The notes beneath the pieces were generated by a model. The model was not told the origin of the DNA and made no database searches. It was given only the letters and a program-made list of their open reading frames with translations. DNA of 64,000 bases, from positions 9,635 to 73,634 of the forward strand of contig JAAFIK010000020.1 in NCBI GenBank assembly GCA_013298665.1, given 5' to 3'. Positions 33,501 through 58,799 of this stretch are shown one piece after another. Every line of letters starts with the position of its first letter. Within the stretch, counting starts at the first letter, position 1. The translations under genes were made by a program, and so were the position numbers. Source of the DNA: Chitinophagales bacterium (GTDB lineage Bacteria; Bacteroidota; Bacteroidia; Chitinophagales; Chitinophagaceae).

Positions 33501-36500
33501 GCAACGGCCTTTACTGTACAATTACCAGACGCTGGTGCGTACAGGAGCCGTTAATGGTGCAGACCTGCGGATATTGCCCAATGGGCTGCCACTCTTGCAC
33601 GCCAATCCCAATGAAGTCGATTTTCTATACCGGGAAATTTTTGCAGAACAGTGTTACCTCAGGCATGGCATCAGCCTGCAGGCCGATAGCTGTGTGTTTG
33701 ACGTAGGCGCCAATATCGGTTGCTTTACAGTTTTTCTCAACCTCCTGCATCCGGGTATTACCGTGTATTCTTTTGAACCCATTCCTGCGGTGTTTACCTA
33801 CCTCCATCAAAACAGGTATCTGTATGATGTTCGCGGGAAAGCATTCCCTATAGCATTGCTGGAGTCGGAACAGGACATCAGCTTTACCTACTACCCGCAG
33901 ATGAGCATTGTCTCTGGTATCGGCAGTAACCAGGATGCCGTAAAAGAAGTGGTAAGCGCATATGCCACGTCATCCGGGGCAGACCTGGCTCCGGCAGAAA
34001 TGGAAGCATTGCTTGCTGCAAAACTTACACACCAGCAGGTGACCAGCCATGCCAGAACACTCTCACAGGTAATATCTGATGAAGGCATCACGAGGATTGA
34101 CCTGCTGAAGATTGATGTAGAAAATTCGGAACACCTGGTATTGCAGGGCATCCTTGATGCCGATTGGCAAAAAATAAACAGCCTCGTGGTAGAAGTGCAT
34201 GATGTGGATGGGCGTGTAGCTGCCATCATGGATATGCTCGTGGGGAGGGGCTTTACGGTACACGCAGAAAAAGAGGAGATACTGTCGCGCACCCATGGCC
34301 TGTATAACCTTTATGCTGTTCGTGATACAAACGCGAAAGGCTTAGTGATGCAGGATAGCACCCCACACCGGCGGATACAGGAATGGGAGTCTCCGCATGA
34401 TTTCACCCGGCGCCTGCATGGTCATCTGGAGCAGCAGTTGCCCCCCTATATGTTGCCGGCACAATGGATACTGATGGATCGGTTTCCCATTACGGCTAAT
34501 GGAAAGATCGATAAAACTGCATTGCCTTTCCCGGCACAGGAACCCGGCAACCACCCGCATGTATTGCCGCGTACCATCATGGAAACACAGTTGGCCGACC
34601 TTTGGCAGGGTTTGCTCAACCGGAAAACAATAGGTGCGTACGATGATTTTTTTGAATGTGGCGGACACTCACTCCTTGCCATGCGTCTCGTAGCCGCGAT
34701 ACGCCGCGTTTTGTTGAGAGAGATGCCGGTAAGAACCGTATTTGATCATCCGGTACTGGCTGATCTGGCGGTGCTGCTGGAGCAAATGCCTGCAAGTATT
34801 CTTCCGCCGGTTGCCATACGAGAGCCTGGTAAAAAAAATCCGCTTTCCTTTTACCAGGAACGTTTGTGGTTTGCCGGTCAGCTCCATGGCAATCAGCCTT
34901 ACCTGATGCCCTGGCTATTCAGTATACAGGGCATGTTGAATATCCCCGCGCTTGAAGAAGCTTTCCGCCGGGTGATAGCGCGGCATGAAATACTCCGTAC
35001 CGTGATACGTGAAGCGGACGGCATTGGGTATCAGTTAATCCGTGACCATACGCTTGCCGTCATGAACCATGTTACTGCGGGCAGCATCCTGGAAATGGGC
35101 TACGCCGGCACAGGCGCCTATCTTGATGCCCTGGCGGGTGAAACATTCGACCTCGCCAACGACGATGTGCTTCGGATTACCCTTATCCGGGAAACAGCAG
35201 ATGCTTACCTGCTCTTTCTGGTGGTACACCATATCGCATTTGATGCCTGGTCTGTTGCTATCATGGTGGAAGAACTGACCCATATCTACAATGCCATCTG
35301 CGAAGGCGATACACCTGTACTCAAGCCATTGCCGGTACAGTATGCCGATTACGCCTGCTGGCAAAGAACCTATTTTAACGCTGCGGTGCTGCAGGAGCGT
35401 ATGGCCTGGTGGCAGCAGCAACTGGCGGGTGTTGAGCCGCTGGCTTTACTGACCGATTTTCCGCGCCCTGATAAGCCTGGTTTTGACGGAGCAGTCGTGT
35501 CTGCCATAACCAGCAAAGAATTTCAGCAGCAGTTGACAGATTTTTGCCGGCAGGAAGGCGTAACCTTGTTCATGGTATTGCTGACGGCATTAAAAGCCCT
35601 GCTGTACCGTTATACGGGTCAGCAGGACATTTGTGTGGGTACTTCGGTTGCTGCACGGCAGCAGCCCGAACTCGAATCACTGATCGGCTTTTTTGTCAAC
35701 ACACTGGCTTTGCGGAGCGAGGTTGAGGGCAACCATGCTTTCAGAACATTATTACAGCAGGTACGGGCAACAACGCTGTCGGCATACGAATACCAGGATG
35801 TACCCTTTGAAAAAGTAGTTGAAGCGCTTGGCGTGGAAAGGGAGTTGAACCGTAACCCTTTGTTTGAAGTCATTCTGGTACTTGAAAATACACCACCCGC
35901 TGGTGCATTAAACTTTGGTGCAGCACAACTCCGTCCCGTTGATTACGGAACAGCGGCTGCTAAATTTGAACTCACGGTTGGTATCGCGGAAACAGAAAAT
36001 GGATTGCTGCTGAACATGGTTTACCGGCGCGATCTTTTTCGGGCGGAAACGATGACAACCATGCTTGATCATTATATTACGCTCTTGATGACGGGTGTTG
36101 CGAATGCCGGTACCGCCATCAACGATTGTTTACGCATCAACCCCTTAACCGGAACAGCAGGAGGTTCAGTGCTGCATACAGCAGTTGCCTGCCCGGCCGG
36201 GATCACTGTGCCGGAGATGTTTGCCCGACAGGTACAACGGGTACCCGAACAGGTCGCATTGGTATTCCGGCAGCAATCATTAACGTACCGGGAACTTGAC
36301 AGGCGTGCCAATCAATGGGCGCATTACCTGCAGAAACTCGGCGTTGGCGCAGAACAGCCCGTACCCGTCTGTATGGAGCGTGGTATGGATATGCTGACGG
36401 GTATACTGGCCGTCATGAAGGCAGGAGGTGCTTATGTGCCTGTTGACCCCGATTTTCCGGATGGCCGTATCCGGTATATACTCGAAGATACCATGCCCGG

Positions 36501-39500
36501 GGTAGTCCTTACCGGGGGTACGGAAGCGGAAAGGATTGCACAAATCATTGCCGGCAGTGGTATGCCCGGGGGGACAAGGGTGGTTGATACCGATACTGAT
36601 GAACATGTAATCAGCATCCAACCCACCACGGCGCCGGATGCTGGTATTGATGAAACAAACCTGGCGTATATGATCTACACGTCAGGCTCAACCGGTCAGC
36701 CCAAGGGGGTAATGATTGAACACCGTCACCTGATAGATTATGTACACGGTTTACGCGCCGCTATTGCACTTGATGCCTGCCGGTCCTTTGCCCTTGTATC
36801 AACACCCGCCGCAGACCTTGGCAATACGGTGATTTACGGCGCGCTGTTGTCCGGTGCCACACTCCATATTTGCCCGCGTGAAATGGTCAGTAACGGAAGC
36901 CTGCTCATGGATTATTTTCAGGAGCAGGCCATCGACTGTTTGAAAATAGTGCCCTCACACTGGAAAGCACTGTGCATAGGACAGGAGCTGCTGCTGCCGC
37001 AAAAACTGTTGATTTTTGGTGGGGAAGCATTACCGAAACAGGTTGCTGAAAGCATCAGTGCTGCAGGGTACAGTTGTACAGTAGTCAATCACTACGGGCC
37101 TACGGAAACCACCATTGGCAAGCTGCTCCACCAGTATGTTCCCGGTACTTTGTATGGTCGTCATATTCCCATCGGTCAGCCATTCTCCGATACACAGGTA
37201 TATGTGCTGTCACCGGACGCTGCCATTTGTCCTGTTGGTATTCCCGGCGAAATCTGCATCGCGGGTGCAGGTGTGGCGCGCGGATATTATCAACAACCCG
37301 GGCTTACTGCAGAAAAATTTATAGCCAACCCTTTTGCGGGCGGTCATGAAGGCGGGCGGTTGTATAAGACCGGCGACCGGGGACGGCTGCTGCCCGATGG
37401 CAATATTGAATACCTTGGCCGTACAGACGACCAGGTCAAAATCCGCGGGTACCGGGTTGAACCCGGCGAAATTGAACAGGCATTGCTGCAGTTGCCCTTT
37501 GTCAACGAAGCCGTAGTGCTGGTTAAAGAAGATGATAAAAACGAAAAGCGCCTGGCCGCCTTTGTGGTCACCGCAACTCCGTTCAGCAGGGATATTATCA
37601 TGGACGCATTGCGTACACGATTGCCGGAATACATGATACCGCCGATACTCCTGACGGTAGATGCGGTACCCCTCACGGCCAACGGTAAGGTCAACAGGAA
37701 GTTGCTGCTGGATATGGATACTGCTGTGCTGCCCCAAGCCGGCTTTGCAGCGCCCCGCAACGATATTGAAACCACATTGACCACCCTTTGGCAGGAATTG
37801 CTTGAGGCAGACCGTGTAGGCATACACGATAATTTTTTTGAACTGGGTGGCGATTCGATCATTGCCATACAGGTGGTGAGCCGGGCACGGCGATCGGGCT
37901 ATGAACTGCAGGTGGGCGATATTTTTGAATACCAGACCATTGCAGGTCTGTCAGACTACTGGTCGTCGCGCACCAGTCTTTCGGCATCACCCGCTGTGCA
38001 GGCACTCCCGGGCGAACCCTTTGGTTTACTGCCCATCCAGCGCTGGTACCTGGAGTCTGCTCCCGCTGTTCCTTCCCATTTTAACCAGGCCGTCCTGCTG
38101 TCAATCCGCAAGACCCTCACCCCCGGGCAGGTACAGCAGGCCATTGATGCACTGGTACACCACCATGATGCCCTGCGGCTTTGCTTTACCTGTCATGACG
38201 GGCATTGGCAGCAAACCTATGGTGCTTCACCGGTGGCATTGGGGCTTACCGATCTGCAAACCGTAAGCGCGGCTGATTTTACCGCCACCCTGGAGCAGCA
38301 CAACGACCAGGTTCAGCACCAGCCCGACATCACCCGCGGGGAGTTGCTCCGGCCTGTACTGGTCCTTACCCCCGGCTTTGAAGCGGACAACCGTTTACTG
38401 CTGGTCATTCATCACCTGGTGATTGATGGGGTATCCTGGCGTATCCTGCTCGAAGACCTTTCGCAACTGCTTGTTCGTGCCGATGCGTTGCTGCCGGCAA
38501 AGACGGCACCCCTGCACCACTGGCTGAGTACCCTTTGGGCTTATGGGCAGCAGGCTGCTGTACAGGCAGAAGAAGCCTGGTGGACAAGCGTATTGTCGCA
38601 ATACCGGCCGCTGCCCACCGATCATGATTATCCTGCCCCCTTAGTTTTTGAAGACCTTTCAACCTGCCATATCCGGCTTGATGCCGGTCATACCCAATCG
38701 CTGCTGCATGCGCTTCCATCAATCTTCCATACCCGTGTCAACGACGTACTGCTGGCTGCACTGGGTACCGCACTCTGTTCTTTTGGTGATTGTACGCAGG
38801 TGGTGGTGGGTCTTGAAGGCCACGGCCGCGAGCAGGTGGCAGGCGATACCGATATCAGCCGTACGGTGGGTTGGTTTACGCAGATGTACCCGGTATTGCT
38901 GGGTGGAAGTAATGGCAATCCCGGTGATACGCTCAAAAATACCAAGGAGCAATTGCGGCGGGTACCGGGTAAGGGTATGGGGTATATGGTGCTGAAATAT
39001 CTTACAGGATCAGCAGCTCTGCAGCAGGGAAGCGGCTGGGATGTGGTGTTCAATTACCTGGGTCAGTTGGACAATGCAGCCGGGGACAATGATTTGTGGT
39101 GTATTGCACCGGAATCTGCGGGTAATACGATCAGCGGACTGAACGGCACGGGCTACCGGCTGATCATCAACAGTATGGTCGAGGGTGGTGAGTTGCGGAT
39201 GAACTGGTTGTACAGCCGCCGCCATTATGACCATGCAACGATAGAAGGGCTTGCGCAGTTGTATGTGCGTTCGCTTGAAGCACTGGTTGATTACTGCCTG
39301 TTGCAGGATAAGCCTGTGTTCACGCCCTCGGATTATGGTATAGGCGATGCCGTGAATTATGAAGAACTTGATGCGTTTCTCGCCGCAGGGGAGGGGGGCA
39401 GTACCCGTGGAGACCAGATTGAGACGATGTACCGGTTGAGCGCACTCCAGCAGGGGATGTTGTTTCACAGCCTCTATGAAGGAAGGGCAGGGATCTACGC

Positions 39501-42500
39501 CGAACAATTTTCCTGCGTGTTTACCGGGTTGAATGAGGAATGGTTTGTCCGGTGCTGGAACCGTTTGTTGCAGCAGCATACTATTTTACGTACCGCTTTT
39601 TACCACGATGTGTTTGATATACCGGTACAATGTGTCTGTAAAGAAATAAGCCTGCCGCTCAGTGTGCATGATTTCAGCCACTTCCCGGCAGCCATCGGGG
39701 AGGAGAAATGCCGGGTGTATGCGCTTGAAGACCGGGAACGCGGCTTCCGGCTGGACAAAGCCCCACTGATGCGGCTAAGTCTCCTGAAGCTGGGAGATGG
39801 CCATTGCCGTATGGTATGGACCTATCACCATATGATTATGGATGGCTGGTCGCTGCCTGTACTGATGGAATCTTTTCTGAACAGTTATGAAGCACTTGCT
39901 GCGGGTCGGCTGCCCAGGATACTTCCGGAAGACCGCTATGAAGAATACATACGGTTTATGGAACGGCGGAATACACAACGCGAAGAAGCTTTCTGGCGGG
40001 AGTATATGGCTGGTGTTGCCGGGCCGGTATTGCTGCCTTTTTGCGAAACCGCTGAAAGGAATAAAGGCGTGGGTATATACGGCATGTCGTCGTGTGTACT
40101 GGATGCGGCTGTAACAGCAGCGGTACAAGCCTTTGCACAACAGCACCACATCACCATCAATACACTGGTACAGGGCATCTGGGCCTATCTCCTGTATCGC
40201 TATACCGGCCAGCATGATATTGTATATGGGGTAACTGTTTCCGGCAGACCCGATGACATGGCACGTATTGAACACCGGGTAGGGATGTACATCAATACGA
40301 TACCCCTGCATGCGGTCATTGCAGAAGACCAGGCATGGGCTGACTGGTTGCAGGGGGTACAACAGGGACAATTGTCTGCCCGTGTACACCAGTATGCAGC
40401 ACTCAATGATATTCAGCGGTGGATTAACCAGCCTGGTGATCTGTTCGATACCGTACTCGTTTACGAAAACTATCCTGTAAACCAGGTATTGTCTTCCGGT
40501 AAATGGCGGCTGCAGACAACGGATATACGCCAGGAAGGAAAAACCAACTACCTGTTGTATATGATTGCCCAGGTGACCACAACAATCAATATCCAGTTTC
40601 ATTACAACAGCAGTTTGCTGCCTGCTGTGTATGCCGGCCAAATCAACGCAGATTTTACCAGGGTACTCACGCAGGTCGTATCTGTCCCCGGTATGCTGCT
40701 GGCGGATACGGTTTTGTTTTCAACCGCAGCGCCGGAAGCAGAAACCAATCCATCCGCTGCTGACGGATATGCAAACATATACAGCGGCAGTATTGTGGAA
40801 TGCTTCGGTAAACAGGCAGCGCAAAAGCCCGATGCCATTGCCCTGGTTTTTGAGGATAACCAGTGGAGTTACAGGGAACTGGATGAACGCAGCAATCAAC
40901 TGGCACATTACCTGCGGGATACAGGTGTTGCCGAACAAACAATTGTGCCTGTTTGTATGGACCGGAGTGCGACCCTCATCATCACCATACTGGCCATACT
41001 CAAGGCTGGCGGAACATATGTACCTGTTGATCCGGCATATCCTGCACACAGGATCCGCCATATGCTTGAAGATACCGGCAGTACGCTCCTGCTGACCGGG
41101 GTGCATTTGCCCGCCGGTATTGATGATCTGCAGGATTTCCGCATCATCTCCATCAATACCCTGGCCGGTCATTTGTCTGAACAGCCCATGACACCATTGT
41201 GCGGTAAGGCTGCACCGGATTCCCTGGCTTGTATCCTGTATACTTCAGGTTCTACCGGTAATCCCAAGGGGGTTATGGTGAGCCATAGCAATATTGTAAG
41301 CCTGGTGTATGGTATGGATGCTATGCGTCCGGAGCCCGGGGATGTACTACTGGCTACCGGATCGCCGGCTTTTGATGCAACCACTTATGAGTACTGGGGT
41401 ACGCTGCTTAATGGCGCCCGTCTCGTGATCTGTTCGCATGAAACATTGTTAGACGGAACCCTGCTGCATACTGTTGTTCAGCAGCAAAGGGTAAACAAAA
41501 TGTGGTTTACTTCGGGTTGGTTTAACCAGTTGGTAGAAACGGTACCGGAACTCTTTGCAGCTTTAGGTGCTGTTATTGTTGGTGGCGATCGCCTGTCTGC
41601 ACACCATATCCGCCGGTTACAGGTATTGTATCCGCGTTTGCAGATGTTCAACGGGTATGGGCCAACGGAGAATACGACCTTTTCCACTATTTATGCTATC
41701 CCTCCTGCTTATGCGCATGACGCTGTTCCGATCGGTCGCGCCATCGCTTACCGCAGTGCTTTTGTACTTGACCATTGCAGACGGATTTGTCCGCCCGGTG
41801 TACCCGGAGAATTGTATGTTGGCGGTGCAGGCTTGTCCAAAGGATACTGGCGGCAGGAGACCCTTACCGCAGAACGCTTTCTGACGATGGCCAACCTGGG
41901 GCGTTTATACCGTACGGGTGATAAGGCATTGCAACAGGCTGACGGGAATATTATTTTCCTCGGCCGCACAGACGACCAGGTAAAAATCCGCGGTTACCGC
42001 GTTGAACCGGGTGAAATTGAAGCCGTACTGCTGAAGGCTGACGGTGTAGTACAGGCTGCGGTGGTCTTAACGCCTGACGCTGCCGGCGTTAAGCGTTTGG
42101 TGGCGTATGTGGTGCCGCAAACCATGTATGATGTACACGCCTTATGCCATCATCTCCGGGAACATCTGCCCGGCTATATGGTACCACATACCATTGTTGC
42201 CCTGCCCGAACTGCCATTAACGGGAAATGGGAAGGTAGACAGGAAGACCCTGGCTGTAATGGCGGCGGCACCGCAACAGCCTGCCACGCCGTTTGCTATA
42301 CTCACGCCGGAAGAACGCACACTGCTGCTGCACCAATTCAATGATACGGATATGCTGTATCCCCGGGATAAAACCCTTATTGACCTGCTTGACGAACAGG
42401 CGGCAATGACCCCGGATGCGCCGGCCCTGCTTTTTGACATACAGCAACTGAGCTATGGTTCGCTGGTGAGGCATAGTAACCAGCTTGCGCATTACCTGCT

Positions 42501-45500
42501 GCAACAGGGCATTGGTCATGGTATGCTCGTGCCTGTGTGTATGCAGCGCAGTGCTGAAATGGTAATAGCCCTGCTTGCCGTACTCAGAACCGGTGCCGGT
42601 TTTATACCCATAGATCCGATATTTCCAAACGGACGCATCGCATATATGCTGGACAACGCAGGCTGTCGTTGCATCATCGCCGATACGCACGGAACAGCAC
42701 TGCTGCCGGATAATGCGGCCTTGCAGATACTCAATCCGGATCTGGCCACCGCTGATATTGCTGCAATGCCTGTGACGCCCCCCGCTTTCCGTCCCACGCC
42801 CGCAGACACGGCTTATGTTATTTATACCTCCGGCTCAACCGGTCTGCCCAAAGGCGTTGCCATCGGCCACCAGTCATTGGTCAACTTTATATATGCCATG
42901 AAACAGTTGCTGCAAACAGACCAGCACTGCCGCCTGTATTCGGTAACTACTTTCTGTTTCGACATTTTTTATCTCGAACTTTTCCTGCCATTGCTCTCCG
43001 GTGGCCAGGTCATCATTGCACAAAAAGATCAATTGCAGGATGGCGACCAGTTGAGGGCGGCATTGAACCGGTACCAGCCCACACACCTGCAGGCTGTACC
43101 CGTGATGTGGCAGATGCTGGTGAACAGCGGCTGGACGAATGAGGAGCAACTGGTCATCCTTACCGGCGGAGAGGCCATAAGCGAACACCTTAAAGATACA
43201 TTATGCAGATTGGGTACGCAGAAAGTCTGGAACCTTTATGGGCCAACAGAAACGACCATCTGGTCGGTAGCCGGTGAACTGCTTGCAAGTGAGCCCGTTA
43301 CCATCGGTAAGCCCATTGGTAATACACAGGTGTACATCACCAATGCAACAGGCCGGTTGCAACCCATCGGTGTGGCGGGGGAATTGCTCATAGGTGGGGA
43401 CGGACTTGCCAAAGCCTACCTCAACCGTCCCGATCTTACGGATGAGCGGTTTGCACCATTGCATATTGAGGGTATCGGCAACCGAAGGCTTTACCGTACA
43501 GGCGATCTTGCCAAATGGCTGCCTGACGGGCGCCTGATCTGTCTCGGGCGTACAGATGAGCAATTAAAAATAAATGGTTACCGTATTGAGCCGGGGGAAA
43601 TAGAAGCCTTACTGCTCCGGGTTACCGGCGTGGAGCAGGCTGTGGTAGTGATGCAGGAAGATCCGCAGCAGGGCAGACGCCTGGCGGGTTTTCTGGTAAC
43701 CGGTGCGGGTTACGACCAGTCGATGGTGGCAGCATACCTCAGCAGGTATATTCCCGGGTATATGATTCCAAGGATATTGGTCAGCCTGCCGCAACTGCCC
43801 CTCACGCCAAATGGCAAAATTGACCGGAAAGCATTGCAGCAGACACCCGCAGTACCCTCCGCTTCAACGGCATACGAAGCGGCTCAAACGAATACCGAAG
43901 AAGTACTGGTCAGGATATGGCAGGATATACTGGGGGTAACCCCGGTAGGCATACACGATAATTTCTTTGAACTGGGTGGGGATTCGATCATTGCCATACA
44001 GGTGGTGAGCCGCACCCGGCGGGCCGGGTACCCATTGTCACCCAGGGAGCTGTTTGAACATCCCACCATTGCAGGTCTGTCAGACTACTGGTCGTCGCGC
44101 ACCAGTCTTTCGGCATCACCCGCTGTGCAGGCACTCCCGGGCGAACCCTTTGGTTTACTGCCCGTCCAGCGCTGGTACCTGGAATCTGCTCCCGCTGTTC
44201 CTTCCCATTTTAACCAGGCCGTCCTGCTGTCGATCCGCAAGACCCTCACCCGCGGGCAGGTGCAGCAGGCCATTGATGCACTGGTACACCACCATGATGC
44301 CCTGCGGCTTTGTTTTACCTGTCATGACGGGCATTGGCAGCAAACCTATGGTGCTTCGCCCGTGGCATTGGGGCTTACCGATCTGCAAACCGTAAGCGCG
44401 GCTGATTTTACCGCCACCCTGGAGCAGCACAACGACCAGGTTCAGCACCAGCCCGACATCACCCGCGGGGAGTTGCTCCGGCCTGTACTGGTCCTTACCC
44501 CCGGCTTTGAAGCGGACAACCGTTTACTGCTGGTCATTCATCACCTGGTGATTGATGGGGTATCCTGGCGTATCCTGCTCGAAGACCTTTCGCAACTGCT
44601 TGTTCGTGCCGATGCGTTGCTGCCGGCAAAGACGGCACCCCTGCACCACTGGCTGAGTACCCTTTGGGCTTATGGGCAGCAGGCTGCTGTACAGGCAGAA
44701 GAAGCCTGGTGGACAAGCGTATTGTCGCAATACCGGCCGCTGCCCACCGATCATGATTATCCTGCCCCCTTAGTTTTTGAAGACCTTTCAACCTGCCATA
44801 TCCGGCTTGATGCCGGTCATACCCAATCGCTGCTGCATGCGCTTCCATCAATCTTCCATACCCGTGTCAACGACGTACTGCTGGCTGCACTGGGTACCGC
44901 ACTCTGTTCTTTTGGTGATTGTACGCAGGTGGTGGTGGGTCTTGAAGGCCACGGCCGCGAGCAGGTGGCAGGCGATACCGATATCAGCCGTACGGTGGGT
45001 TGGTTTACGCAGATGTACCCGGTATTGCTGGGTGGAAGTAATGGCAATCCCGGTGATACGCTCAAAAATACCAAGGAGCAATTGCGGCGGGTACCGGGTA
45101 AGGGTATGGGGTATATGGTGCTGAAATATCTTACAGGATCAGCAGCTCTGCAGCAGGGAAGCGGCTGGGATGTGGTGTTCAATTACCTGGGTCAGTTGGA
45201 CAATGCAGCCGGGGACAATGATTTGTGGTGTATTGCACCGGAATCTGCGGGTAATACGATCAGCGGACTGAACGGCACGGGCTACCGGCTGATCATCAAC
45301 AGTATGGTCGAGGGTGGTGAGTTGCGGATGAACTGGTTGTACAGCCGCCGCCATTATGACCATGCAACGATAGAAGGGCTTGCGCAGTTGTATGTGCGTT
45401 CGCTTGAAGCACTGGTTGATTACTGCCTGTTGCAGGATAAGCCTGTGTTCACGCCCTCGGATTATGGTATAGGCGATGCCGTGAATTATGAAGAACTTGA

Positions 45501-45546
45501 TGCATTCATGGATGATAATGAAACCGATGATGTGATGACCTTCTGA
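27391..45546 (+). CDS. NRPS-2: dock-C-A-T-C-A(MT)-T-C-A-T-E-C-A-A-T-E (6051 aa)
   Basis: C motifs HHIAFDGWS (x2), HHIAFDAWS and HHMIMDGWS. Five A cores (YTSGSTG[KRQNL]PKG). T cores GGHSL (x2) and GGDSI (x2). E motifs HHLVIDGVSW (x2). No carrier domain between the 4th and 5th A domains. Confidence 0.95.
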   Translation: MTAQHILSVIKTAEAAGIAFFVEDGVLRIRKSKGVVLSEALLREVQAYKQEILTHLSGQDGAPDTRHYKITPASPATGYLPLSFAQERLWFIHHLHGSVQYHLPWVYRLNGRVDRERLANAFLTIIERHTILRTVIAEAEGEPYAVCRPAHEWRMGYRKEALTAAEKYAAADAFVRTPFDLTADFPLRVLLISTGEEEHMLVGVVHHIAFDGWSVGILIQELTALYQNPLAQLPLLPIQYSDFAAWQKQTISDDVITQQAAYWKENLAAVQSCALLTDFVRPAVERHTGAVVSIPISKPLTEALAALSRQEGVTLFMTLLAAYQVLLYRYTGQTDTCVGTPVAGRRQEEVEGLIGFFVNTLPLRNPVNAGDTFRDILLRVKQAALGAYENQDISFERIVEELALTRDLSRSPIFQVMFALQQEVPRSIQLGDVQGLAESPATITAQYDLSLEATQTPDGLIFSLTYCTALYKAATAMGMLDHYVNLLEAVVADAGQEAGQLSMLTADEQHQLLYRFNDTAMPIPEPCSIIAWFHQQVLHRPSATALVFDGEVFCYRQLDEQSNQLAHYLRQSGIKQHDLIPVAMQRSTTMIITLLAVLKTGAAFIPVDPVFPEDRVQYMLEDAQCRWMITHDACQDLAAYHGQATIINTDTCSAAIAGMPQSPLHTTAAADDLVYTIYTSGSTGKPKGVMIEQRSLVNFIMAMQRLLHTGPDCAFYAVTTFCFDIFYLEMFLPLLSGGKLILADRETVQDGYRLRKALAQHRPTHMQAVPAMWRLLLDCDWCNEENIQVLVGGEAVSVPLKEELTRLCQQPVWNLYGPTETTIWSTAGLLPAGDVVTIGRPIGNTQVYITDAQLGLQPIGVPGELYIGGNGLARGYLNRPELTAEKFIIHSFDEQAHSHQRIYRTGDIAKWLPDGRLVYLGRADEQVKIRGYRIEPGEIEALLLQAAGVRQTVVLAQEDSRQERQLVAFIVPDEHYTQPDIIQYLQKHLPAYMVPAIWVTVPHIPQTPNGKADRKALLNNTVMPLATREYAEARNSTEEMLVAIWQDTLGVAQVGIHDNFFELGGHSLQAMRIISAIRKRMGKEIPVKMLFQFPAIALLAPRLSDTHEGDVLPSIATRTRDTVIPLSFAQERLWFIDRLQGTVQYHMPRVFYIRGRLDVAALEAAFTMILRRHEVLRTVIHTAEGRGEQKILAMDNWAVTHVSAGANGLMDKHAVSSHIRRCIEEPFDLGRDSMLRVMLITAGVDDYVLVVCAHHIAFDGWSIDIMQREWIACYRGLSSGGQIDLPVLPVQYADYAIWQRQYLAGHVLETKLAYWKKQLEGLQPLALPADYTRPAAQGTLAGHVHTPIPPSLVDALGKISQAAGATLFMSMATLLNLLLHRYTNQEDIAIGSPVANRNQPELEGLIGFFVNSIVLRNTVSSTLSFLDLLGRVKAVTMEAYAHQDTPFEKIVEAVVKDRDRSRNPVFQVMLLLQDAAAMTLPEDCLGDGLRLTDDGEDHVANKFDLVFTITEGTAAVDLGITYNAELFAQATIERMGRHFVALLASAVQQPESPAGELPMLDKAETDLLLRVYNDTAVSYPAAATVIDWFEAQVQRTPGATAVVFEQVSLSYQALNACVNQLAAHLRSLGVQQEVLVPVCLNRSINMIAGILGILKAGAAYVPVDPEYPEERIRFMLEDTAAKWILTTSDLSLPLSEDQSAINLDLLWPQISHLDTHNPVRLAEPGNLAYVIYTSGSTGRPKGVMIEHAGLFNRLAWAQGQYALTPEDIVLQKTTFCFDVSVWELIWPLLTGASLVLAKPGGHKDSAYLRQVCADRGITLMHFVPAMLEVFLADIRAGDCATLKKILCSGEALTPSQVKLCKEKLPGVALHNLYGPTEASIDVTYWAAPTAAADITTVPIGKPVANTRLYILDQRGRLMHAGGIGELCIAGIQVARGYLNLPELTAEKFMPDPFYPAAGAAGRMYRTGDLARWQQDGNIAFLGRNDDQVKIRGFRIELGEIEYALSTAAGVSGVKVIARAAQPGEDKQLLGYIQVDHLQRPLLYNYQTLVRTGAVNGADLRILPNGLPLLHANPNEVDFLYREIFAEQCYLRHGISLQADSCVFDVGANIGCFTVFLNLLHPGITVYSFEPIPAVFTYLHQNRYLYDVRGKAFPIALLESEQDISFTYYPQMSIVSGIGSNQDAVKEVVSAYATSSGADLAPAEMEALLAAKLTHQQVTSHARTLSQVISDEGITRIDLLKIDVENSEHLVLQGILDADWQKINSLVVEVHDVDGRVAAIMDMLVGRGFTVHAEKEEILSRTHGLYNLYAVRDTNAKGLVMQDSTPHRRIQEWESPHDFTRRLHGHLEQQLPPYMLPAQWILMDRFPITANGKIDKTALPFPAQEPGNHPHVLPRTIMETQLADLWQGLLNRKTIGAYDDFFECGGHSLLAMRLVAAIRRVLLREMPVRTVFDHPVLADLAVLLEQMPASILPPVAIREPGKKNPLSFYQERLWFAGQLHGNQPYLMPWLFSIQGMLNIPALEEAFRRVIARHEILRTVIREADGIGYQLIRDHTLAVMNHVTAGSILEMGYAGTGAYLDALAGETFDLANDDVLRITLIRETADAYLLFLVVHHIAFDAWSVAIMVEELTHIYNAICEGDTPVLKPLPVQYADYACWQRTYFNAAVLQERMAWWQQQLAGVEPLALLTDFPRPDKPGFDGAVVSAITSKEFQQQLTDFCRQEGVTLFMVLLTALKALLYRYTGQQDICVGTSVAARQQPELESLIGFFVNTLALRSEVEGNHAFRTLLQQVRATTLSAYEYQDVPFEKVVEALGVERELNRNPLFEVILVLENTPPAGALNFGAAQLRPVDYGTAAAKFELTVGIAETENGLLLNMVYRRDLFRAETMTTMLDHYITLLMTGVANAGTAINDCLRINPLTGTAGGSVLHTAVACPAGITVPEMFARQVQRVPEQVALVFRQQSLTYRELDRRANQWAHYLQKLGVGAEQPVPVCMERGMDMLTGILAVMKAGGAYVPVDPDFPDGRIRYILEDTMPGVVLTGGTEAERIAQIIAGSGMPGGTRVVDTDTDEHVISIQPTTAPDAGIDETNLAYMIYTSGSTGQPKGVMIEHRHLIDYVHGLRAAIALDACRSFALVSTPAADLGNTVIYGALLSGATLHICPREMVSNGSLLMDYFQEQAIDCLKIVPSHWKALCIGQELLLPQKLLIFGGEALPKQVAESISAAGYSCTVVNHYGPTETTIGKLLHQYVPGTLYGRHIPIGQPFSDTQVYVLSPDAAICPVGIPGEICIAGAGVARGYYQQPGLTAEKFIANPFAGGHEGGRLYKTGDRGRLLPDGNIEYLGRTDDQVKIRGYRVEPGEIEQALLQLPFVNEAVVLVKEDDKNEKRLAAFVVTATPFSRDIIMDALRTRLPEYMIPPILLTVDAVPLTANGKVNRKLLLDMDTAVLPQAGFAAPRNDIETTLTTLWQELLEADRVGIHDNFFELGGDSIIAIQVVSRARRSGYELQVGDIFEYQTIAGLSDYWSSRTSLSASPAVQALPGEPFGLLPIQRWYLESAPAVPSHFNQAVLLSIRKTLTPGQVQQAIDALVHHHDALRLCFTCHDGHWQQTYGASPVALGLTDLQTVSAADFTATLEQHNDQVQHQPDITRGELLRPVLVLTPGFEADNRLLLVIHHLVIDGVSWRILLEDLSQLLVRADALLPAKTAPLHHWLSTLWAYGQQAAVQAEEAWWTSVLSQYRPLPTDHDYPAPLVFEDLSTCHIRLDAGHTQSLLHALPSIFHTRVNDVLLAALGTALCSFGDCTQVVVGLEGHGREQVAGDTDISRTVGWFTQMYPVLLGGSNGNPGDTLKNTKEQLRRVPGKGMGYMVLKYLTGSAALQQGSGWDVVFNYLGQLDNAAGDNDLWCIAPESAGNTISGLNGTGYRLIINSMVEGGELRMNWLYSRRHYDHATIEGLAQLYVRSLEALVDYCLLQDKPVFTPSDYGIGDAVNYEELDAFLAAGEGGSTRGDQIETMYRLSALQQGMLFHSLYEGRAGIYAEQFSCVFTGLNEEWFVRCWNRLLQQHTILRTAFYHDVFDIPVQCVCKEISLPLSVHDFSHFPAAIGEEKCRVYALEDRERGFRLDKAPLMRLSLLKLGDGHCRMVWTYHHMIMDGWSLPVLMESFLNSYEALAAGRLPRILPEDRYEEYIRFMERRNTQREEAFWREYMAGVAGPVLLPFCETAERNKGVGIYGMSSCVLDAAVTAAVQAFAQQHHITINTLVQGIWAYLLYRYTGQHDIVYGVTVSGRPDDMARIEHRVGMYINTIPLHAVIAEDQAWADWLQGVQQGQLSARVHQYAALNDIQRWINQPGDLFDTVLVYENYPVNQVLSSGKWRLQTTDIRQEGKTNYLLYMIAQVTTTINIQFHYNSSLLPAVYAGQINADFTRVLTQVVSVPGMLLADTVLFSTAAPEAETNPSAADGYANIYSGSIVECFGKQAAQKPDAIALVFEDNQWSYRELDERSNQLAHYLRDTGVAEQTIVPVCMDRSATLIITILAILKAGGTYVPVDPAYPAHRIRHMLEDTGSTLLLTGVHLPAGIDDLQDFRIISINTLAGHLSEQPMTPLCGKAAPDSLACILYTSGSTGNPKGVMVSHSNIVSLVYGMDAMRPEPGDVLLATGSPAFDATTYEYWGTLLNGARLVICSHETLLDGTLLHTVVQQQRVNKMWFTSGWFNQLVETVPELFAALGAVIVGGDRLSAHHIRRLQVLYPRLQMFNGYGPTENTTFSTIYAIPPAYAHDAVPIGRAIAYRSAFVLDHCRRICPPGVPGELYVGGAGLSKGYWRQETLTAERFLTMANLGRLYRTGDKALQQADGNIIFLGRTDDQVKIRGYRVEPGEIEAVLLKADGVVQAAVVLTPDAAGVKRLVAYVVPQTMYDVHALCHHLREHLPGYMVPHTIVALPELPLTGNGKVDRKTLAVMAAAPQQPATPFAILTPEERTLLLHQFNDTDMLYPRDKTLIDLLDEQAAMTPDAPALLFDIQQLSYGSLVRHSNQLAHYLLQQGIGHGMLVPVCMQRSAEMVIALLAVLRTGAGFIPIDPIFPNGRIAYMLDNAGCRCIIADTHGTALLPDNAALQILNPDLATADIAAMPVTPPAFRPTPADTAYVIYTSGSTGLPKGVAIGHQSLVNFIYAMKQLLQTDQHCRLYSVTTFCFDIFYLELFLPLLSGGQVIIAQKDQLQDGDQLRAALNRYQPTHLQAVPVMWQMLVNSGWTNEEQLVILTGGEAISEHLKDTLCRLGTQKVWNLYGPTETTIWSVAGELLASEPVTIGKPIGNTQVYITNATGRLQPIGVAGELLIGGDGLAKAYLNRPDLTDERFAPLHIEGIGNRRLYRTGDLAKWLPDGRLICLGRTDEQLKINGYRIEPGEIEALLLRVTGVEQAVVVMQEDPQQGRRLAGFLVTGAGYDQSMVAAYLSRYIPGYMIPRILVSLPQLPLTPNGKIDRKALQQTPAVPSASTAYEAAQTNTEEVLVRIWQDILGVTPVGIHDNFFELGGDSIIAIQVVSRTRRAGYPLSPRELFEHPTIAGLSDYWSSRTSLSASPAVQALPGEPFGLLPVQRWYLESAPAVPSHFNQAVLLSIRKTLTRGQVQQAIDALVHHHDALRLCFTCHDGHWQQTYGASPVALGLTDLQTVSAADFTATLEQHNDQVQHQPDITRGELLRPVLVLTPGFEADNRLLLVIHHLVIDGVSWRILLEDLSQLLVRADALLPAKTAPLHHWLSTLWAYGQQAAVQAEEAWWTSVLSQYRPLPTDHDYPAPLVFEDLSTCHIRLDAGHTQSLLHALPSIFHTRVNDVLLAALGTALCSFGDCTQVVVGLEGHGREQVAGDTDISRTVGWFTQMYPVLLGGSNGNPGDTLKNTKEQLRRVPGKGMGYMVLKYLTGSAALQQGSGWDVVFNYLGQLDNAAGDNDLWCIAPESAGNTISGLNGTGYRLIINSMVEGGELRMNWLYSRRHYDHATIEGLAQLYVRSLEALVDYCLLQDKPVFTPSDYGIGDAVNYEELDAFMDDNETDDVMTF
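33500..34340 (+). other. FkbM-family methyltransferase domain inserted in the second A domain of NRPS-2, between cores A8 and A9 (approximate bounds)
   Basis: VFDVGANIGCFTVFL (SAM-binding GxNxG) and RIDLLKIDVENSEHLVLQG are hallmark FkbM/Methyltransf_21 blocks. Flanked by KIRGFRIELGEIE (A8) upstream and LPPYMLP...ANGKIDK (A9/A10) downstream. Confidence 0.8.
37936..39374 (+). repeat. E-domain repeat copy 1 (NRPS-2 module 3 epimerase)
   Basis: 1439 bp matching 44065..45503 at a constant offset of 6129 bp (in frame). About 8 mismatches are visible, all within the first ~310 bp. I found no mismatch from about 38250 to 39374. Confidence 0.9.
40790..42250 (+). other. NRPS-2 fourth A domain, Val-like code, not followed by a carrier domain (approximate bounds)
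   Basis: Cores LYTSGSTGNPKG, NGYGPTENTT, GELYVGGAGLSKGY, YRTGD, GRTDDQVKIRGYRVEPGEIE and LPLTGNGKVDRK (A10 at 42222-42245). Hand-extracted code DAYWIGGTFK. Confidence 0.8.
42301..43840 (+). other. NRPS-2 fifth A domain, Gly code, beginning with a C-A-linker-like motif 18 codons after the previous A10 (approximate bounds)
   Basis: LTPEERTLLLHQFNDT (42301-42348) parallels LTADEQHQLLYRFNDT at the C1-A1 junction. Cores IYTSGSTGLPKG, NLYGPTETTIWS, YRTGD and TPNGKIDRK. Hand-extracted code DILQLGLIWK. The A8 core reads KING instead of KIRG. Confidence 0.8.
44065..45503 (+). repeat. E-domain repeat copy 2 (NRPS-2 terminal epimerase)
   Basis: See copy 1. Several minus-strand shadow ORFs are amino-acid identical between the copies (38395..38625 = 44524..44754, 38648..38995 = 44777..45124 and others). 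Identity ends at 39375/45504, where copy 1 continues into a C domain and copy 2 into the tail MDDNETDDVMTF-stop. Confidence 0.9.
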
Positions 45547-45626
45547 CCTGAAAATGGTCTTCCCGGCACAAATGCCGGGGATAAAATTATTCGCTGCACT
45601 TATCACTAAGAAAAAATACAACAACA

Positions 45627-48600
45627 ATGGATAACCTGGAATCTACGACCATGACCGGTCAGCAGTCTGCCGGAGATAATGGCAGTATAGCAACCCTGTC
45701 TCCCGGCGGGCAAAGCCTCGTACAAATATTCACCCGTCAGGTGCAGCAGCATCCTGCCGCAGTGGCACTGCTGATGGGTAAGGAGAAAATGACATATCAG
45801 GAACTTGATCAACGCAGCAACCAGGTGGCTCATGGTCTGCGGTTGCAGGGTGTTCGGCCGGGTGACGCCATCGGGTTGCTGTCTGAGCGTGGTACAGCCA
45901 TGGTGGTCAGTTTGTGGGGCATACTGAAAGCCGGGGGTATTTATGTACCCCTTAGCACTAGTTATCCTGCCGAACGTTTGCAGTACATGGTGCGGGATGC
46001 CGGGGTTACCTGTATTGTACACACCGCCGAAAGCCTGCTTGATCAGTTGGGATTGCCGGATCATGGCCTTACGCTTGATGAATACGATTGCCGGTTTTAT
46101 CCGGTTACCCCTGTTGAAGATGCCACCACAGCAGCGGCAGGAGCATATATCATGTACACCTCCGGCTCTACGGGCAAACCCAAGGGTATACTGGTTACAC
46201 ATGCCAATATTGTTCAACTGGTATTTGACCCCGGTCCGATCAGGATACTGCCGGGCGATCGTGTACTCCAGTGGTCTGACTATGCATTTGACGGGTCTGT
46301 TTATGACATGTTTGGCAGTTTACTGAATGGCGCCTGTCTCTGTCTTGTCCGGGGCAATACCTCAGATGTTTATGCCCTTGGCCGGTTGATTGCTGAACAG
46401 GAAGTCAGTCTCGCTTTTTTCACTACCGCTTTACTGAATAATTTTGCAGATGCCTGCCCGGAAGCACTCCGGGATATGCGGAAGGTGTTGTTTGGCGGGG
46501 AAGAGGCTTCGGTTGCGCATGTACGCAACATACTGGAGGTGCTCGGTCCGGGAAAACTGGTACACGTGTACGGACCTACAGAAACAACGGTTTTTGCCAC
46601 CGCTTATGCTGTCAATACCATTGAGGCAGAGCAATACATCCCTATTGGTAAGCCGCTGAAGGATGCCCGTATTCTTTTGCTGGGTGCAGATGGACATCCG
46701 GTGTCTGCGGGGTCGCCCGGGGAGATATGTATCGGTGGTGGTGGCGTATCGGCCGGGTACCTGCGTAATGAAACCCTGACTGCGGAGAAATTTGTGCACC
46801 GGAACGGAGCGCGCTATTACCATTCCGGCGATCTTGCCCGTGAAGATGAAGCGGGGAACCTCATTTTTATGGGCAGGATAGACGGGCAGATCAAACTGCG
46901 CGGATACCGTATTGAACCCGGAGAGATTGAAGCCCTGCTCCTGCAATGCCCGGGTGTACAGCAGGCAGTTGTTTTACTGCATACTACAGGAGAAACGCAT
47001 AAAAAACTGGCCGGGTTCTTAGTCACCGGCAATGGGTATGATAAGGCTGCCATGCTCGATGTTGTACAAGGGCAATTGCCTGCCTGGATGATCCCTGCTG
47101 TATGGATGGAACTGCCCCATATACCGTTGACGCCTAACGGAAAAACTGATCGTGCAGCGCTCATACACCTCTTGTCTGCCCCCGATAAGGAACAGGAAAC
47201 CGCAGACACCCGATCCGTTGCCGAAGAAGTATTTACGCAAATATGGCAGGATACGCTGGGTATCCGGCGGGTAGGTATAACAGATAATTTTTTCGATTTG
47301 GGGGGGGACTCGATTATCTCAATACAGGTCGTAAGCCGGGCAAGAAAAGCGGGCTACAATTTATCCCCCAAAGATATATTTGAGTATCCAACCATTCGCG
47401 CGCTTGCAGCATACTGGCAGTCGGAAGACAGACCCGGGCCCGGAGAAAGGGAGCAAGGGCTGCTGACAGGCCTATGCGGATTGCTGCCCGTGCAGCACTG
47501 GTATTTTGAACAGGGCCTGGCACGACATTCCCATTTTAACCAGGCAGTACTGCTCGGCATCGGTAAACCGGTTACGCAGGATCAACTGCAGCAAATATAT
47601 ACCCGGCTGACCGACCACCACGACGCACTCCGTTTTGTCTTTACCCCGCAGAACGGAGGGTGGGAGCAGGTATACGGCAATCCGGAGCTCCGGTTGCAGG
47701 TGATTGATATGGAAGCTGTTGCTGCCGGGGATTTTGCAGCCACCCTTCTTGCACACAGCAACAGTATACAGGAAAGCCTGTGTATAGAAACCGGTGAACT
47801 CTTCAGGATGGTATTGTTCAACACACCCGCTTTTGAGCAACAGAACCGGTTGTTACTGGTTATCCATCACCTGGTGGTAGACGGGGTTTCCTGGCGCATC
47901 CTTATCGAAGATATCGAACGCCTGCTGGATAACCCGGCTGCTGCACTGCCGCCCAAAACGGCCTCCTGTCGCGACTGGCAGGAGGCACTCCTTTATTATG
48001 CCCGGCAAAAAACCGTGCAGGAAGAAGCACACTACTGGGCAGAAACAATCGCCACCGCTGAACGCCTGCCCACTGATTATACTTACGAAACACCCCTGGT
48101 GCAGGATGATATGCAGCAGTATTGCATCCGCCTCAGTGCCGCTTCCACAAAGGCCCTGCTGCAGGATATCCCCGCTCTCTTTCATACCGGTATCAACGAT
48201 ATCCTGCTGACGGCACTGGGGATATCGGTTTGTGCATTCGCTGGAACCAGCCAGGTAGTGATCGGGCTCGAAGGCCATGGCCGTGAATCCATCGCGGGGG
48301 ATATTGACCTGAGCCGTACCGTGGGTTGGTTCACCAGTTTGTACCCCCTGCGGCTGGAGGTTCAGGACAAAAATCCAGTTGAGGTATTGAAGCATACCAA
48401 GGAACAGTTGCGCAGGGTACCCGGGAGGGGTATGGGCTATATGGTGCTGAAATACCTGCAGCGTTTACCCGGATTGCAGGGGCCGGACTGCTGGGATCTG
48501 CTGTTCAACTATCTCGGGCAACTGGATCGTGTCGCCACAGGTCATGGCCCGCTTTCAGTAGTACAGGAATCTGCAGGTCAGAATACTGCTGCTGCCAACA

Positions 48601-51600
48601 AACCCATTTGCAGGCTGATCATCAACGGGATGGTTACCGGGGAAGCATTACTTGTGCAATGGCAGTACAGTACCCGGCACTATGCAGCAGATACCATCGC
48701 TTCGGTTGCAGCCACCTTTCAGGAAGTACTGGAAACCCTGGTGCGCGATTGCAGACACCAGCAACCTGTATTTACACCTGCCGATTATGGTCTTGGCGAT
48801 AGTGTTGACTATAGGGAACTTGATGATTTCCTGGGTGTGGATACCCCTGCTTCCACAAGTATTACCCGGGAAGACACCGATGCCGCCAGCATCCGTATGT
48901 TTATCGATAACCTCGCTGCACAGGATTTTTTTCTGGTTGTGGAAAAGGAAAACCTCATACTGCGCACAAAAAAAGGGAAACCGCCGGGCGGGCAGCGGGT
49001 AAAGCCTGCATCTTCAATCGTGAACTATATCAAAACCCACAAAGCTGCACTTATGCAGCATCTTTCCGGTACTGAAACTGCTGTACAGCAAAAGCCCCGG
49101 AAAAAAGTGACGGGTATTTGTAAACTCTCCCCCTTACAGGCCGGGATGCTCTTTCACGGGCTTTATGAGCAGCATACCCTCGCCTATATCGAACAGTTCT
49201 GCTGCAGGTGCAGCAACCTTGATCCCGTACTGTTTTCGCGTGGGTGGCACATACTCGTCGTGCAGCACAGTATCCTCAGGACGGCTTTTTATGCAAATAC
49301 ATTTAATATACCCGTTCAATGTGTACAGGAGAATGTTGTACTGCCCATCACCATTATTGACTATCGTCAACTGGATAAGGCTAAACAGGAACAGGCTATT
49401 GCTGCATACAAGAGTGCCGACCAGCAGCAGCCTTTCGATTTTGAGCAGGCACCATTGATGCGTATTGGGTTGCTCAGGCTCAGCGAACAGGAATGGCATA
49501 TGGTATGGACCTATCACCATATACTGGTAGATGGCTGGTCTATGCAATTGCTGATGCAGTCTTTTCTTACGATCTATGAAGCCCTCGTATCCGGCGAAGC
49601 ATTACCGCAGGTTAAGGAAGACCGCTATGAAGATTATATCCGGTATATTGAGCGGCAGGATAAGGCCAAAGAAGAAGCCTTCTGGCGGGGGTATATGGCT
49701 GGTATGGATACGGCCACATTATTACCCTTTATACATTCCCTGGCCGATCGTAATAAAACAGTGGAGACGTTCAGTGCCGAGTATCTTGTATTGGATGAGG
49801 CACAGTCGGTACAACTGCAGTCCTGGGCACAACAGCAACGGGTTACCATGAATACGGTATTGCAGGGGGTATGGGCAATACTATTGCACCATTATACAGG
49901 CAACAATCATATTGCATACGGGATAACCGTATCCGGCCGGCCCGCTGATTTAAAAAATGTAGAGGAGAAAATTGGCATCTACAGCAACCTGAATCCGCTG
50001 CATTCCTGCTGGCGGGCTGAGCAGGATATTGCCGGATGGCTGCAGGATATGCAGTTGCAACAGCTCCTGTCAAGAGAGTTCCAGTACAGTTCGGTGAATG
50101 ACATACAACGCTGGACGGGTATTATGGGTGACTGGTTCGACAGCATACTCACTTTTGAAAATTATCCGCTGAGCCGGATGCTGGCTTCGCGTCAATGGTC
50201 GCTCAGTATTGAAGCTACTGAAAAGTATGAGCGGACAACCAATTATCCCATGAGTGTACGTGTGGTACCCGGCACCAATACCCAGGTACAGTTTATCTAT
50301 AAAAGCAGTCTTCTGCCGCAGGCATCAGCAGCGCAGATCGCCCGTCACTTCAGGGAGGTGCTGCTCGGGATGATTACCGGTAAGGCAACCACCGTAGGCA
50401 GTCTGCAGTTGATGGGCGACATCGAACGGCAGAGCTTACTGGATACTTTTTCTGCCGGGGACACTGTACCCGTACCCACCGGTACATCCATCACCGGTCT
50501 GTTTGCCGAACAGGTAAACGCTACGCCGGATCATCCGGCACTGGTGTTTGAAAATATAACCATTACCTATAAGGTATTAGACGATCAGGCGGTATGCCTG
50601 GCGCATCACCTCATCAACCATGGTATTGATTCGGGAGATATGGTCCCCATCTGTATGGAACGCAGTGTACACTTCATCATTGCCATATTCGCCACCCTGA
50701 AAGCAGGTGCCGCTTATGTTCCCATCGATCCTGCATACCCGGCAGAACGCGTTGCTTATATGCTTAAAGATACCGCAGCAAAACTGGTGCTTACGGATGA
50801 AGGTTCACGCAGCCTCCTGCCTGCTGACCTGCCCGTACTGCTTCCTGCTGCTGTTTTGACCGGTACTGGCGGTTTGCCTGCACCGATACATAAACACCCG
50901 GAACCACACGATCTGGCATACGTTATCTATACTTCCGGAAGTACCGGGTTACCCAAGGGTGTGATGATCGAACATGGTAACCTGCTGCATTCTGTATGGG
51001 CGCGTAAAGCATATTATGGCCCGGCAGGGGCAGCCTTTCTCGTGCCTTCATTTGCTTTCGACTCTTCCGTAGCCGTTATTTTCGGCACGTTGCTCAGCGG
51101 TGGTCAACTGTTGTTTTGCCGGGAAGAATGGTTAAAAGATACCCGTTATCTTGAAACGATATTACCGCAGACGGATATGTTGCTTTGCGTACCTTCCTAC
51201 TACCAGTTCCTGCTCCAGGAACGGTTGCTGGACAATACCCGGCTGCAAACGGTGATCCTTGCGGGGGAGCCACTGGAGCCCTCACTTGTCCGCCAGCACT
51301 ATACCGTATCGGCAGCACAGCTATACAATGAGTACGGGCCCACCGAAGCCAGTGTATGGGCTACCGTAAGCCATGTTAAAAAAGAAGACCGGCAGGTAAC
51401 GATCGGCAGACCTGTACCAAACCTCAGCCTGTATATCCTCGATGCTGCCGGTTGCCCGGTGCCGGAAGGTATTCCGGGTGAAATATATATTGGCGGGCCA
51501 CAGGTGGCAAGAGGGTATCTTAACCAGACAATACTTACCGGGGAGAAATTTGTAACCATTGCTGCAGACGGGCATACACCCCGCCGCCTCTACCGCACCA

Positions 51601-58613: not shown

Positions 58614-58799
58614 ATGTCTGATTTTGATTTAGCCGAAGTTATTGGCCTTTTGCAAAAGGCCGAAGCGCTTGACGTCAGGCTTTCCTGCGAAAAGGATGAA
58701 CTTGTGGTGAAGGTCAATCGCGAAAAAAGACCCGATGCACAATTCCTTGATGCCTTGCGAAACCATAAGGTACACCTGCTGGAATACTTCAGGCAATAT
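58614..58799 (+). other. TubC-N-like docking domain at the NRPS-4 N-terminus
   Basis: LAEVIGLLQKAEALDVRLSCEKDELVVKVNREKRPDAQFLDALRNHKVHLLEYF precedes the first C domain. Confidence 0.65.

Follow-up and report, generated by a model that had tools for sequence, protein, structure and literature searches.

The terminal module of a nonribosomal peptide synthetase (NRPS) encoded by a Chitinophagales bacterium contains two complete adenylation (A) domains in tandem, followed by a single carrier (T) domain. We found this arrangement in a 64,000-nucleotide (nt) stretch of a Bacteroidota genome (GenBank assembly GCA_013298665.1, contig JAAFIK010000020.1, positions 9,635 to 73,634), hereafter the window, which holds an NRPS gene cluster on its forward strand. 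The synthetase in question, N2, is one 6051-aa protein in the annotation of the 78,413-nt NCBI contig. Its last module reads C-A-A-T-E, where C and E denote condensation and epimerization domains, and its two A domains are named A4a and A4b below. This layout is very rare and most likely stems from a recombination accident; it may or may not give rise to two product variants.

Two complete A domains precede a single carrier domain

Domain maps were drawn with Pfam and with phmmer searches seeded with the window's own domains. Over positions 39391-45546, Pfam returned two stretches of the Condensation family, two AMP-binding and two AMP-binding_C matches, and one PP-binding match (Table 1). A canonical elongation module has one A domain per carrier in the order C-A-T; here, two full A units accompany the single PP-binding domain. 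All core motifs are present, with HHMIMDGWS in C, FFELGGDSI in T, HHLVIDGVS in E, and A3, A5, A7, A8, and A10 in both A domains. No ketoreductase (KR) domain was found in this segment by Pfam. A previous sequence-only reading of the same DNA had described two complete A domains 18 codons apart, with a single T and then an E domain after the second, and had proposed domain calling with hidden Markov models. Pfam indeed returned the order C-A-A-T-E, and phmmer placements and motif coordinates agree with it. That reading had also located a C-A-linker-like motif at 42301-42348, which is its exact position, and had recognized the A10 motif GNGKVDRK of A4a correctly while misplacing it by one base (42223-42246 rather than 42222-42245).

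Neither a carrier nor a condensation domain separates the sequential A domains. Their spacer is 18 aa long, and the 66 aa across the junction (42223-42420) gave no Pfam match even at E ≤ 1. A hidden carrier domain is thereby ruled out; 18 residues are also too few for a carrier fold, and the earlier statement that there is no room for a T or C domain at this point is upheld.

Upstream, C4 follows the E domain of module 3 (E3). Its motif resembles that of the window's only other post-E C domain, in keeping with the DCL type assigned to it beforehand, whereas the remaining C domains read HHIAFDGWS. Downstream, the GGDSI motif of T4 is of the type usual in carriers ahead of E domains, and most of E4 matches E3 without a difference. 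The C-terminal tail appears to resemble a COM-type donor docking helix. The D-donor-type C-domain partner expected for the terminal T-E pair of N2 was found nowhere in the window.

Table 1. Coordinates of the synthetases, the terminal module of N2, and associated sequence features in the window.
Feature	Position	Strand	Description and evidence
N1	15478-23805		CAL-ACP-C-A-T-C-A-T
N2	27391-45546	+	6051 aa; C-A-T-C-A(FkbM-type methyltransferase)-T-C-A-T-E-C-A-A-T-E
T-E repeat, copy 1 (module 3)	37812-39374	+	Self-megablast, 97.8% identity over 1564 nt
C4, condensation domain	39421-40728	+	DCL-like (YHHMIMDGWS), after E3; Pfam Condensation, phmmer
A4a, complete adenylation domain, Val-type	40810-42246	+	phmmer 40810-42240; catalytic Lys K4948
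18-aa spacer	42247-42300	+	TLAVMAAAPQQPATPFAI; apparent A-T linker of A4a, from post-A10 comparison across window A domains
A4b, complete adenylation domain, Gly	42301-43830	+	Opens with C-A-linker motif LTPEERTLLLHQFNDT; phmmer 42397-43824; A10 PNGKIDRK at 43807-43830; catalytic Lys K5476
T4, only carrier domain of the module	43891-44100	+	Pfam PP-binding, phmmer; GGDSI motif, mosaic sequence
T-E repeat, copy 2 (terminal module)	43942-45503	+	Begins at VGIHDNFFELGG motif inside T4
E4, epimerization domain	44146-45480	+	HHLVIDGVS; Pfam, phmmer
C-terminal tail	45451-45543	+	TPSDYGIGDAVNYEELDAFMDDNETDDVMTF; from translation
GC-rich 9-bp hairpin	45560-45581	+	14 nt 3' of N2 stop, then A/U-rich stretch; terminator-like
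N3	45627-58577		A-T-E-C-A-T-C-A-T-C-A-T
N4	58614 to beyond 64000		C-A-T-C-A...

Both A domains appear intact and differ in predicted specificity

To obtain specificity codes, we aligned the A domains with a GrsA fragment in MAFFT; the control reads DAWTIAAICK, as expected. A4a carries DAYWIGGTFK, a Val-type code, and A4b carries DILQLGLIWK, the canonical Gly code, in agreement with the specificities proposed for them earlier. The A4b code is the same as that of the first A domain of N2 (28996-30429), which is also its nearest paralog (57% aa and ~65% nt identity, with similar flanking linkers) and had been named as such. The nearest paralog of A4a is the third A domain of N3 (61% aa identity). 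A4a and A4b are merely 41% identical to each other at the aa level, which led us to reject tandem duplication of one A domain. Neither stands out as foreign in GC content, GC content at third codon positions, or codon usage.

We next quantified the integrity of the two domains. Pfam scores for AMP-binding and AMP-binding_C were 286 and 57 bits for A4a, and 276 and 42 bits for A4b; eight further A domains of the window, scored alongside them, ranged over 244-299 and 30-49 bits. As a second measure, we took the 76 alignment columns conserved to at least 90% in 357 outside A domains and counted the deviations in each domain; the outside domains have a median of 2 and a 95th percentile of 6.2. A4a deviates at 2 of the 76 columns (Tyr to Cys beside A3, and Pro to Ala) and keeps the motifs YTSGSTGNPKG, YRTGD, and GNGKVDRK. 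A4b deviates at 7, and the other A domains of the window at 0-10. A4a thus shows no decay and A4b falls inside the local range, such that both look alive. The suggestion that one A domain is a decaying relic does not hold for A4a, which sits at the outside median and is better conserved than A4b.

The junction joins two unlike linkers

The spacer between the A domains appears to be the complete A-T linker of A4a, stopping where helix 1 of a T domain would start. After its A10 motif A4a reads RKTLAVMAAAPQQPATPFAI, and a similar linker (RKALAAQPLPDGTHSEATGYIAP...) follows its paralog. On the other side of the junction, A4b opens with a C-A-linker motif that is also found before the first A domain of N2 (LTADEQHQLLYRFNDT), and A4b, its A-T linker, and helix 1 of T4 are collinear with the A1-linker-T1 segment of N2. 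Hence, A4a has a full A-T linker and no T domain, and A4b has a C-A linker and no C domain. This combination implies that A4a was formerly followed by a T domain and A4b formerly preceded by a C domain.

Judging from the sequence, the C-A-A-T-E module is most likely a real product of in-frame recombination at linker boundaries. Recombination with a breakpoint in the C-A linker had been put forward before; recombination stands, and the breakpoint can be given more specifically as a fusion of the complete A-T linker that follows A4a with the C-A linker that precedes A4b. Two routes could lead there. A T-C pair may have been lost in frame between adjacent modules (C4-A4a-T / C-A4b-T-E), which would take a single event. 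Alternatively, an A(Gly) domain with its linker may have been inserted, with the left crossover falling in the A-T linker rather than in the C-A linker. The domain anatomy, the integrity of both A domains, the linker scar, and the conversion tract described below are directly seen in the sequence; the order of events and the choice of A domain that loads T4 are inferred.

The T-E segment bears marks of gene conversion

The T-E segment of the terminal module is a near copy of that in module 3 (Table 1). Over 1142 nt (38233-39374 versus 44362-45503) the copies are 100% identical, with zero mismatches. Upstream of this tract lies a ~50%-divergent patch (37884-37935 / 44013-44064) between near-identical tracts, and from the patch to position 38232 there are 8 mismatches. 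Identity ends at 45503, 40 nt before the N2 stop and inside the C-terminal tail, where the cis E-C linker of module 3 diverges. We aligned T4 with the T domain of module 3 (T3), the first T of N3 (47223-47423), and the first T of N2 (30499-30690). The divergent patch of T4, RTRRAGYPLSPRELFEHPTI, matches the first T of N3 at 13 of 20 residues versus 10 of 20 for T3.

Near-identical tracts broken by divergent patches do not fit a simple T-E duplication. With its near-identical tracts, divergent patches, and pre-existing paralogs, the pattern looks like gene conversion between paralogous T-E pairs that were already in place, and the N2 gene is visibly recombination-active. A 2006-nt perfect repeat between two modules of N4 is a further sign of recombination in the cluster. 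Because E4 would have been homogenized with E3 whatever its substrate, its intactness is no evidence on that substrate. This bears on an earlier argument that the E domain is meaningful on Val only: E is indeed silent on Gly, but the argument is a weak one on substrate since the T-E pair appears to have been homogenized with that of module 3.

The tandem arrangement is rare and differs from its precedents

To gauge how widespread the layout is, we retrieved 240 homologs, in which an A domain directly followed by another A domain occurred in 0 of 398 cases. Searching with the 2051-aa C-A-A-T-E segment returned no match above 48% identity and none covering more than 54% of the query, and thus no A-A homolog and no ortholog. 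A 35-aa junction peptide, compared with 1.84 billion protein representatives, matched only N2 itself and one ordinary C-A linker. A longer, 321-aa junction query returned only proteins of up to ~560 aa, the search apparently keeping matches to ~1.75 times the query length. When genome contigs were scanned for the junction, two loci came up, both unrelated (25-26% identity), and an exact look-up of one neighboring gene gave no match. All window proteins looked up, N2 included, were singletons at 90% identity. Absence of the junction from the other sequences searched fits a young, lineage-specific event.

The literature on A-A architectures yielded two enzymes in our search, PyrG and AulA. Sequential A domains were called "a very rare feature ... 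only preceded by PyrG" in the description of AulA (PMC5238615), and a 2023 review lists tandem A domains only for PyrG and the auriculamide enzyme, the first A domain being non-functional or dispensable in both (PMC10510592). The remark that no standard NRPS grammar explains C-A-A-T-E therefore stands, with the amendment that these two enzymes are precedents for its tandem A domains.

Like N2, PyrG (pyridomycin; Streptomyces pyridomyceticus) has sequential A domains without a carrier between them and a single downstream T domain. Its second A domain, PyrG-A2, has an embedded KR. In PyrG-A1 the phosphate-binding residues of A3 are missing, as is the catalytic Lys; A2 alone is active, and A2 activates an alpha-keto acid (PMC10510592). 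AulA (auriculamide; Herpetosiphon aurantiacus) reads A1-A2-KR-PCP with two consecutive A domains, and its A1 has a poorly conserved core, has Asp413 replaced by Tyr, and is dispensable in vitro (PMC5238615). N2 differs from both. Whereas PyrG-A1 is dead, A4a and A4b keep all motifs; whereas PyrG-A2 serves an alpha-keto acid, the N2 pair are plain amino-acid A domains in an elongation module; and whereas AulA is an initiation module with a KR, A4a follows a C domain and has YRTGD and GNGK intact. Neither the degenerate first A domain of these enzymes nor their second A domain for an alpha-keto acid with KR is found in N2, where A4a matches the outside median in deviations and the A4b code starts with Asp and is a Gly code.

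Other systems resemble N2 in part. Colibactin ClbH reads A1-C-A2-T, and its A1 loads a free-standing carrier in trans. As in N2, an extra A domain without its own T is built into a multidomain NRPS; in ClbH, however, a C domain separates the A domains, and a free-standing carrier is used; no carrier of this kind was seen in the window. Interrupted A domains, with a methyltransferase, KR, or E domain in the Asub subdomain, share with N2 a large extra domain that hangs from Asub and must move along with it. PchE indicates that an extra domain on Asub is compatible with catalysis (PMC10510592). In interrupted A domains the insert lies within one A domain, between A8 and A10, whereas in N2 a whole second A domain follows a complete A10. 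Finally, natural NRPS recombination (module deletion or duplication, and concerted evolution) shows the linker breakpoints and near-identical paralogous T-E and C-A tracts observed here, but it usually keeps one A domain per T domain. In N2 the endpoints are non-equivalent (A-T linker to C-A linker) and two A domains were left. What appears to be new in N2 is a tandem-A module with both A domains intact, placed in a C-A-A-T-E elongation context.

A working model and its alternatives

We tentatively favor, at a little under an even chance, a reading in which A4b loads Gly in cis and A4a is an intact relic that serves as platform partner of C4 and perhaps as a minor loader of D-Val. The T-proximal A4b would charge T4 with Gly. 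C4, seated on its native platform with the A4a core, would then couple the D-Asp-ended chain from T3/E3 onto Gly-S-T4. E4 would be chemically silent on Gly and persist both through repeated conversion from E3 and because it carries the hand-off tail, which would address a partner outside the window that starts with a D-donor-type C domain. A4a would probably still make Val-AMP, whether as a young relic, as structural partner of C4, or as a minor loader giving a little D-Val congener. The carrier of an NRPS module is delivered by movement of the Asub subdomain from which it hangs (PMC10510592), and in both characterized tandem-A enzymes activity resides in the T-proximal A domain (PMC5238615; PMC10510592). 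A4b is expected to be the Gly loader because the A4b-linker-T4 segment is canonical, because the carrier follows its Asub, and because the T-proximal A domain is active in PyrG and AulA.

Several observations weigh against this reading. Chief among them, A4a is if anything the better conserved of the pair: it is undecayed by column count (2 of 76 versus 7 for A4b and 0-10 for the others), its AMP-binding_C score is the highest in the window, and A4b has non-conservative changes in A8 (KIRG to KING) and A6 (ARGY to AKAY). Had the recombination event taken place long ago, degeneration of an idle A4a would be expected, as is seen in PyrG and AulA. A pre-E-type carrier followed by an E domain is also the natural setting for a chiral residue such as Val.

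The alternatives named by the sequence-only reading (dual loading, a recombination relic, and action in trans) still appear to be the right candidates. Programmed dual loading, in which A4a and A4b both charge T4 at relevant rates to give Gly and D-Val congeners with E acting on the Val form only, is possible if doubtful. It would explain why both A domains are fully intact in a module with an E domain and a GGDSI-type carrier. In yersiniabactin biosynthesis one A domain of HMWP2 serves non-adjacent carriers, which suggests that reach across a domain is possible. However, dual loading has no conservation support and no precedent in two live A domains on one T domain, the distal A domain being dead in known tandem-A enzymes. 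Moreover, the Asub of A4a is tethered to a ~55-kDa domain, and T4 lies ~530 residues away.

It is unlikely that A4a is the true loader, incorporating D-Val, with A4b a little-used Gly-type passenger captured between A4a and its T-E pair. The superior conservation of A4a over A4b with its A8 and A6 substitutions would agree with this, as would a C4-A4a unit that looks native, a linker type matching the paralog of A4a, and an E domain that has meaning for Val only. Yet the A4b-linker-T4 geometry is canonical, as in module 1, the E domain can be accounted for by gene conversion and the hand-off tail, and the deviations of A4b lie inside the range of other, presumably working, A domains of the window.

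We consider it quite unlikely that A4a acts in trans on a carrier elsewhere (an A-less module or a stand-alone T domain) in the manner of the extra A domain of ClbH. Such a role would suit an intact A domain without its own T, and the cluster runs past 64000 with ~14 kb of contig outside the window. Within the 64-kb window, however, every module has its own A domain, including the one with the divergent T of N1, and no A-less cognate carrier is visible, be it a stand-alone T or a C-T module.

The junction lies in unique sequence

The A-A junction is known from one draft contig. It lies in a unique segment between both T-E copies, and 42190-42470 contains no exact repeat of at least 21 nt relative to the rest of the window; repeat-driven misassembly is unlikely since the junction is in unique sequence. 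That the junction or a surrounding loop was mis-joined in the draft assembly is thus very improbable. Caution is called for in that the sequence comes from one 78-kb contig, belonging to a singleton genome, and that the cluster contains a pair of perfect direct repeats, one of 1.1 kb and the other of at least 2.0 kb. Against a mis-join, the reading frame continues through the junction, which falls at natural linker boundaries inside an open frame of 18 kb. Joining k-mers at a conserved motif would yield A-T rather than A-A, and a flank swap of two direct repeats deletes a segment only and cannot make the junction.

Part of the window also has an independent assembly. The 7.6-kb Logan contig SRR9948924_124841, built from a public read set, is 99.92% identical to window positions 2589-10201, with 5 mismatches and 1 gap. 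Within it, an M56 peptidase is 499 aa long versus 420 aa in the window, and the single gap is probably the reason; a frameshift or a start-site difference in the window copy is possible.

Genomic context of the N2 gene

Accessory genes of the cluster encode an S8 peptidase, a LuxR-type response regulator, an ABC transporter, and a CmlA-like diiron beta-hydroxylase. They recall those of the chitinopeptin gene-cluster family (PMC9248904). We rejected a chitinopeptin-type product, as the accessory genes are shared but the residues predicted here differ from the chitinopeptin peptide. The beta-hydroxylase gene (25637-27268; CmlA_N plus a metallo-beta-lactamase fold) lies just 5' of N2, and one A domain of N2 is of the Asp type (DLTKIGHIGK) and has an E domain after it. 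It is plausible that the N2 product contains D-beta-hydroxy-Asp, as chitinopeptins do. The second A domain of N2 (32101-34587) has the code DVWHLSLIDK, canonical for Ser, and is interrupted between its core and A10 by an FkbM-type methyltransferase (PF05050, 56.6 bits), which suggests a methylated Ser residue from module 2.

Elsewhere in the cluster, the carrier after the first A domain of N1 (20335-20712) has the unusual attachment motif HFFAHGCTSV instead of FFxxGGHS/GGDS and is still PP-binding by score (33.9 bits). In N4, the 2006 nt at 58860-60865 recur with 100% identity at 61995-64000, a period of 3135 nt. The repeated stretch takes in the C domain and the beginning of the A domain in two modules and reaches the window end. 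It reflects either duplication or conversion of a module very recently, or a loop in the assembly.

At its N-terminus (27391-27570) N2 carries a TubC_N docking domain that passes the Pfam cut-off (31.8 bits), and the TubC_N match at the N-terminus of N4 (58614-58800) is weak and falls short of it (19.7 bits). Short, similar tails end N1 (23770-23805, ...AYEFIDL*) and N3 (58540-58577, ...NYDTIQL*). Pairings of N1 with N2 and N3 with N4, or of N1 with N4 and N3 with N2, are both possible. In the region around its start (45544-45740), N3 opens directly with an initiation-type A-T-E that has a short N-terminus and no C domain or C-A-linker motif. The hairpin between N2 and N3 has an RNA folding energy of -20.6 kcal/mol (z = -3.96); a consensus terminator scan did not call it. 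The window may hold two assembly lines, or one non-collinear line, because N3 starts as an initiation-type A-T-E and is preceded by the hairpin.

Ahead of the cluster, positions 1-13412 hold a block of genes for the cargo and machinery of type IX secretion, with CHU_C, PorP/SprF, and Por_Secre_tail domains, which assigns the source to the Bacteroidota. They encode an 1844-aa protein with 12 PKD repeats and CHU_C, a PorP/SprF protein, two paralogous M57 metallopeptidases, a BlaR1-type M56 peptidase, and an S8 peptidase with Por_Secre_tail.

Implications

The tandem A domains of N2 have two possible meanings: a fresh intermediate of NRPS evolution, or a natural route to product diversity at one position. 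As an intermediate, the module would indicate that the original A domain can survive recombination between linkers and stay on next to its C domain as a partner. Both readings are relevant to NRPS engineering: placing a new A domain after the native C-A platform, instead of replacing the native A domain, could avoid the problems that domain swaps cause at the C-A interface. If dual loading is true, the N2 module would be a natural "either/or" module and the first of the tandem-A kind with two working A domains.

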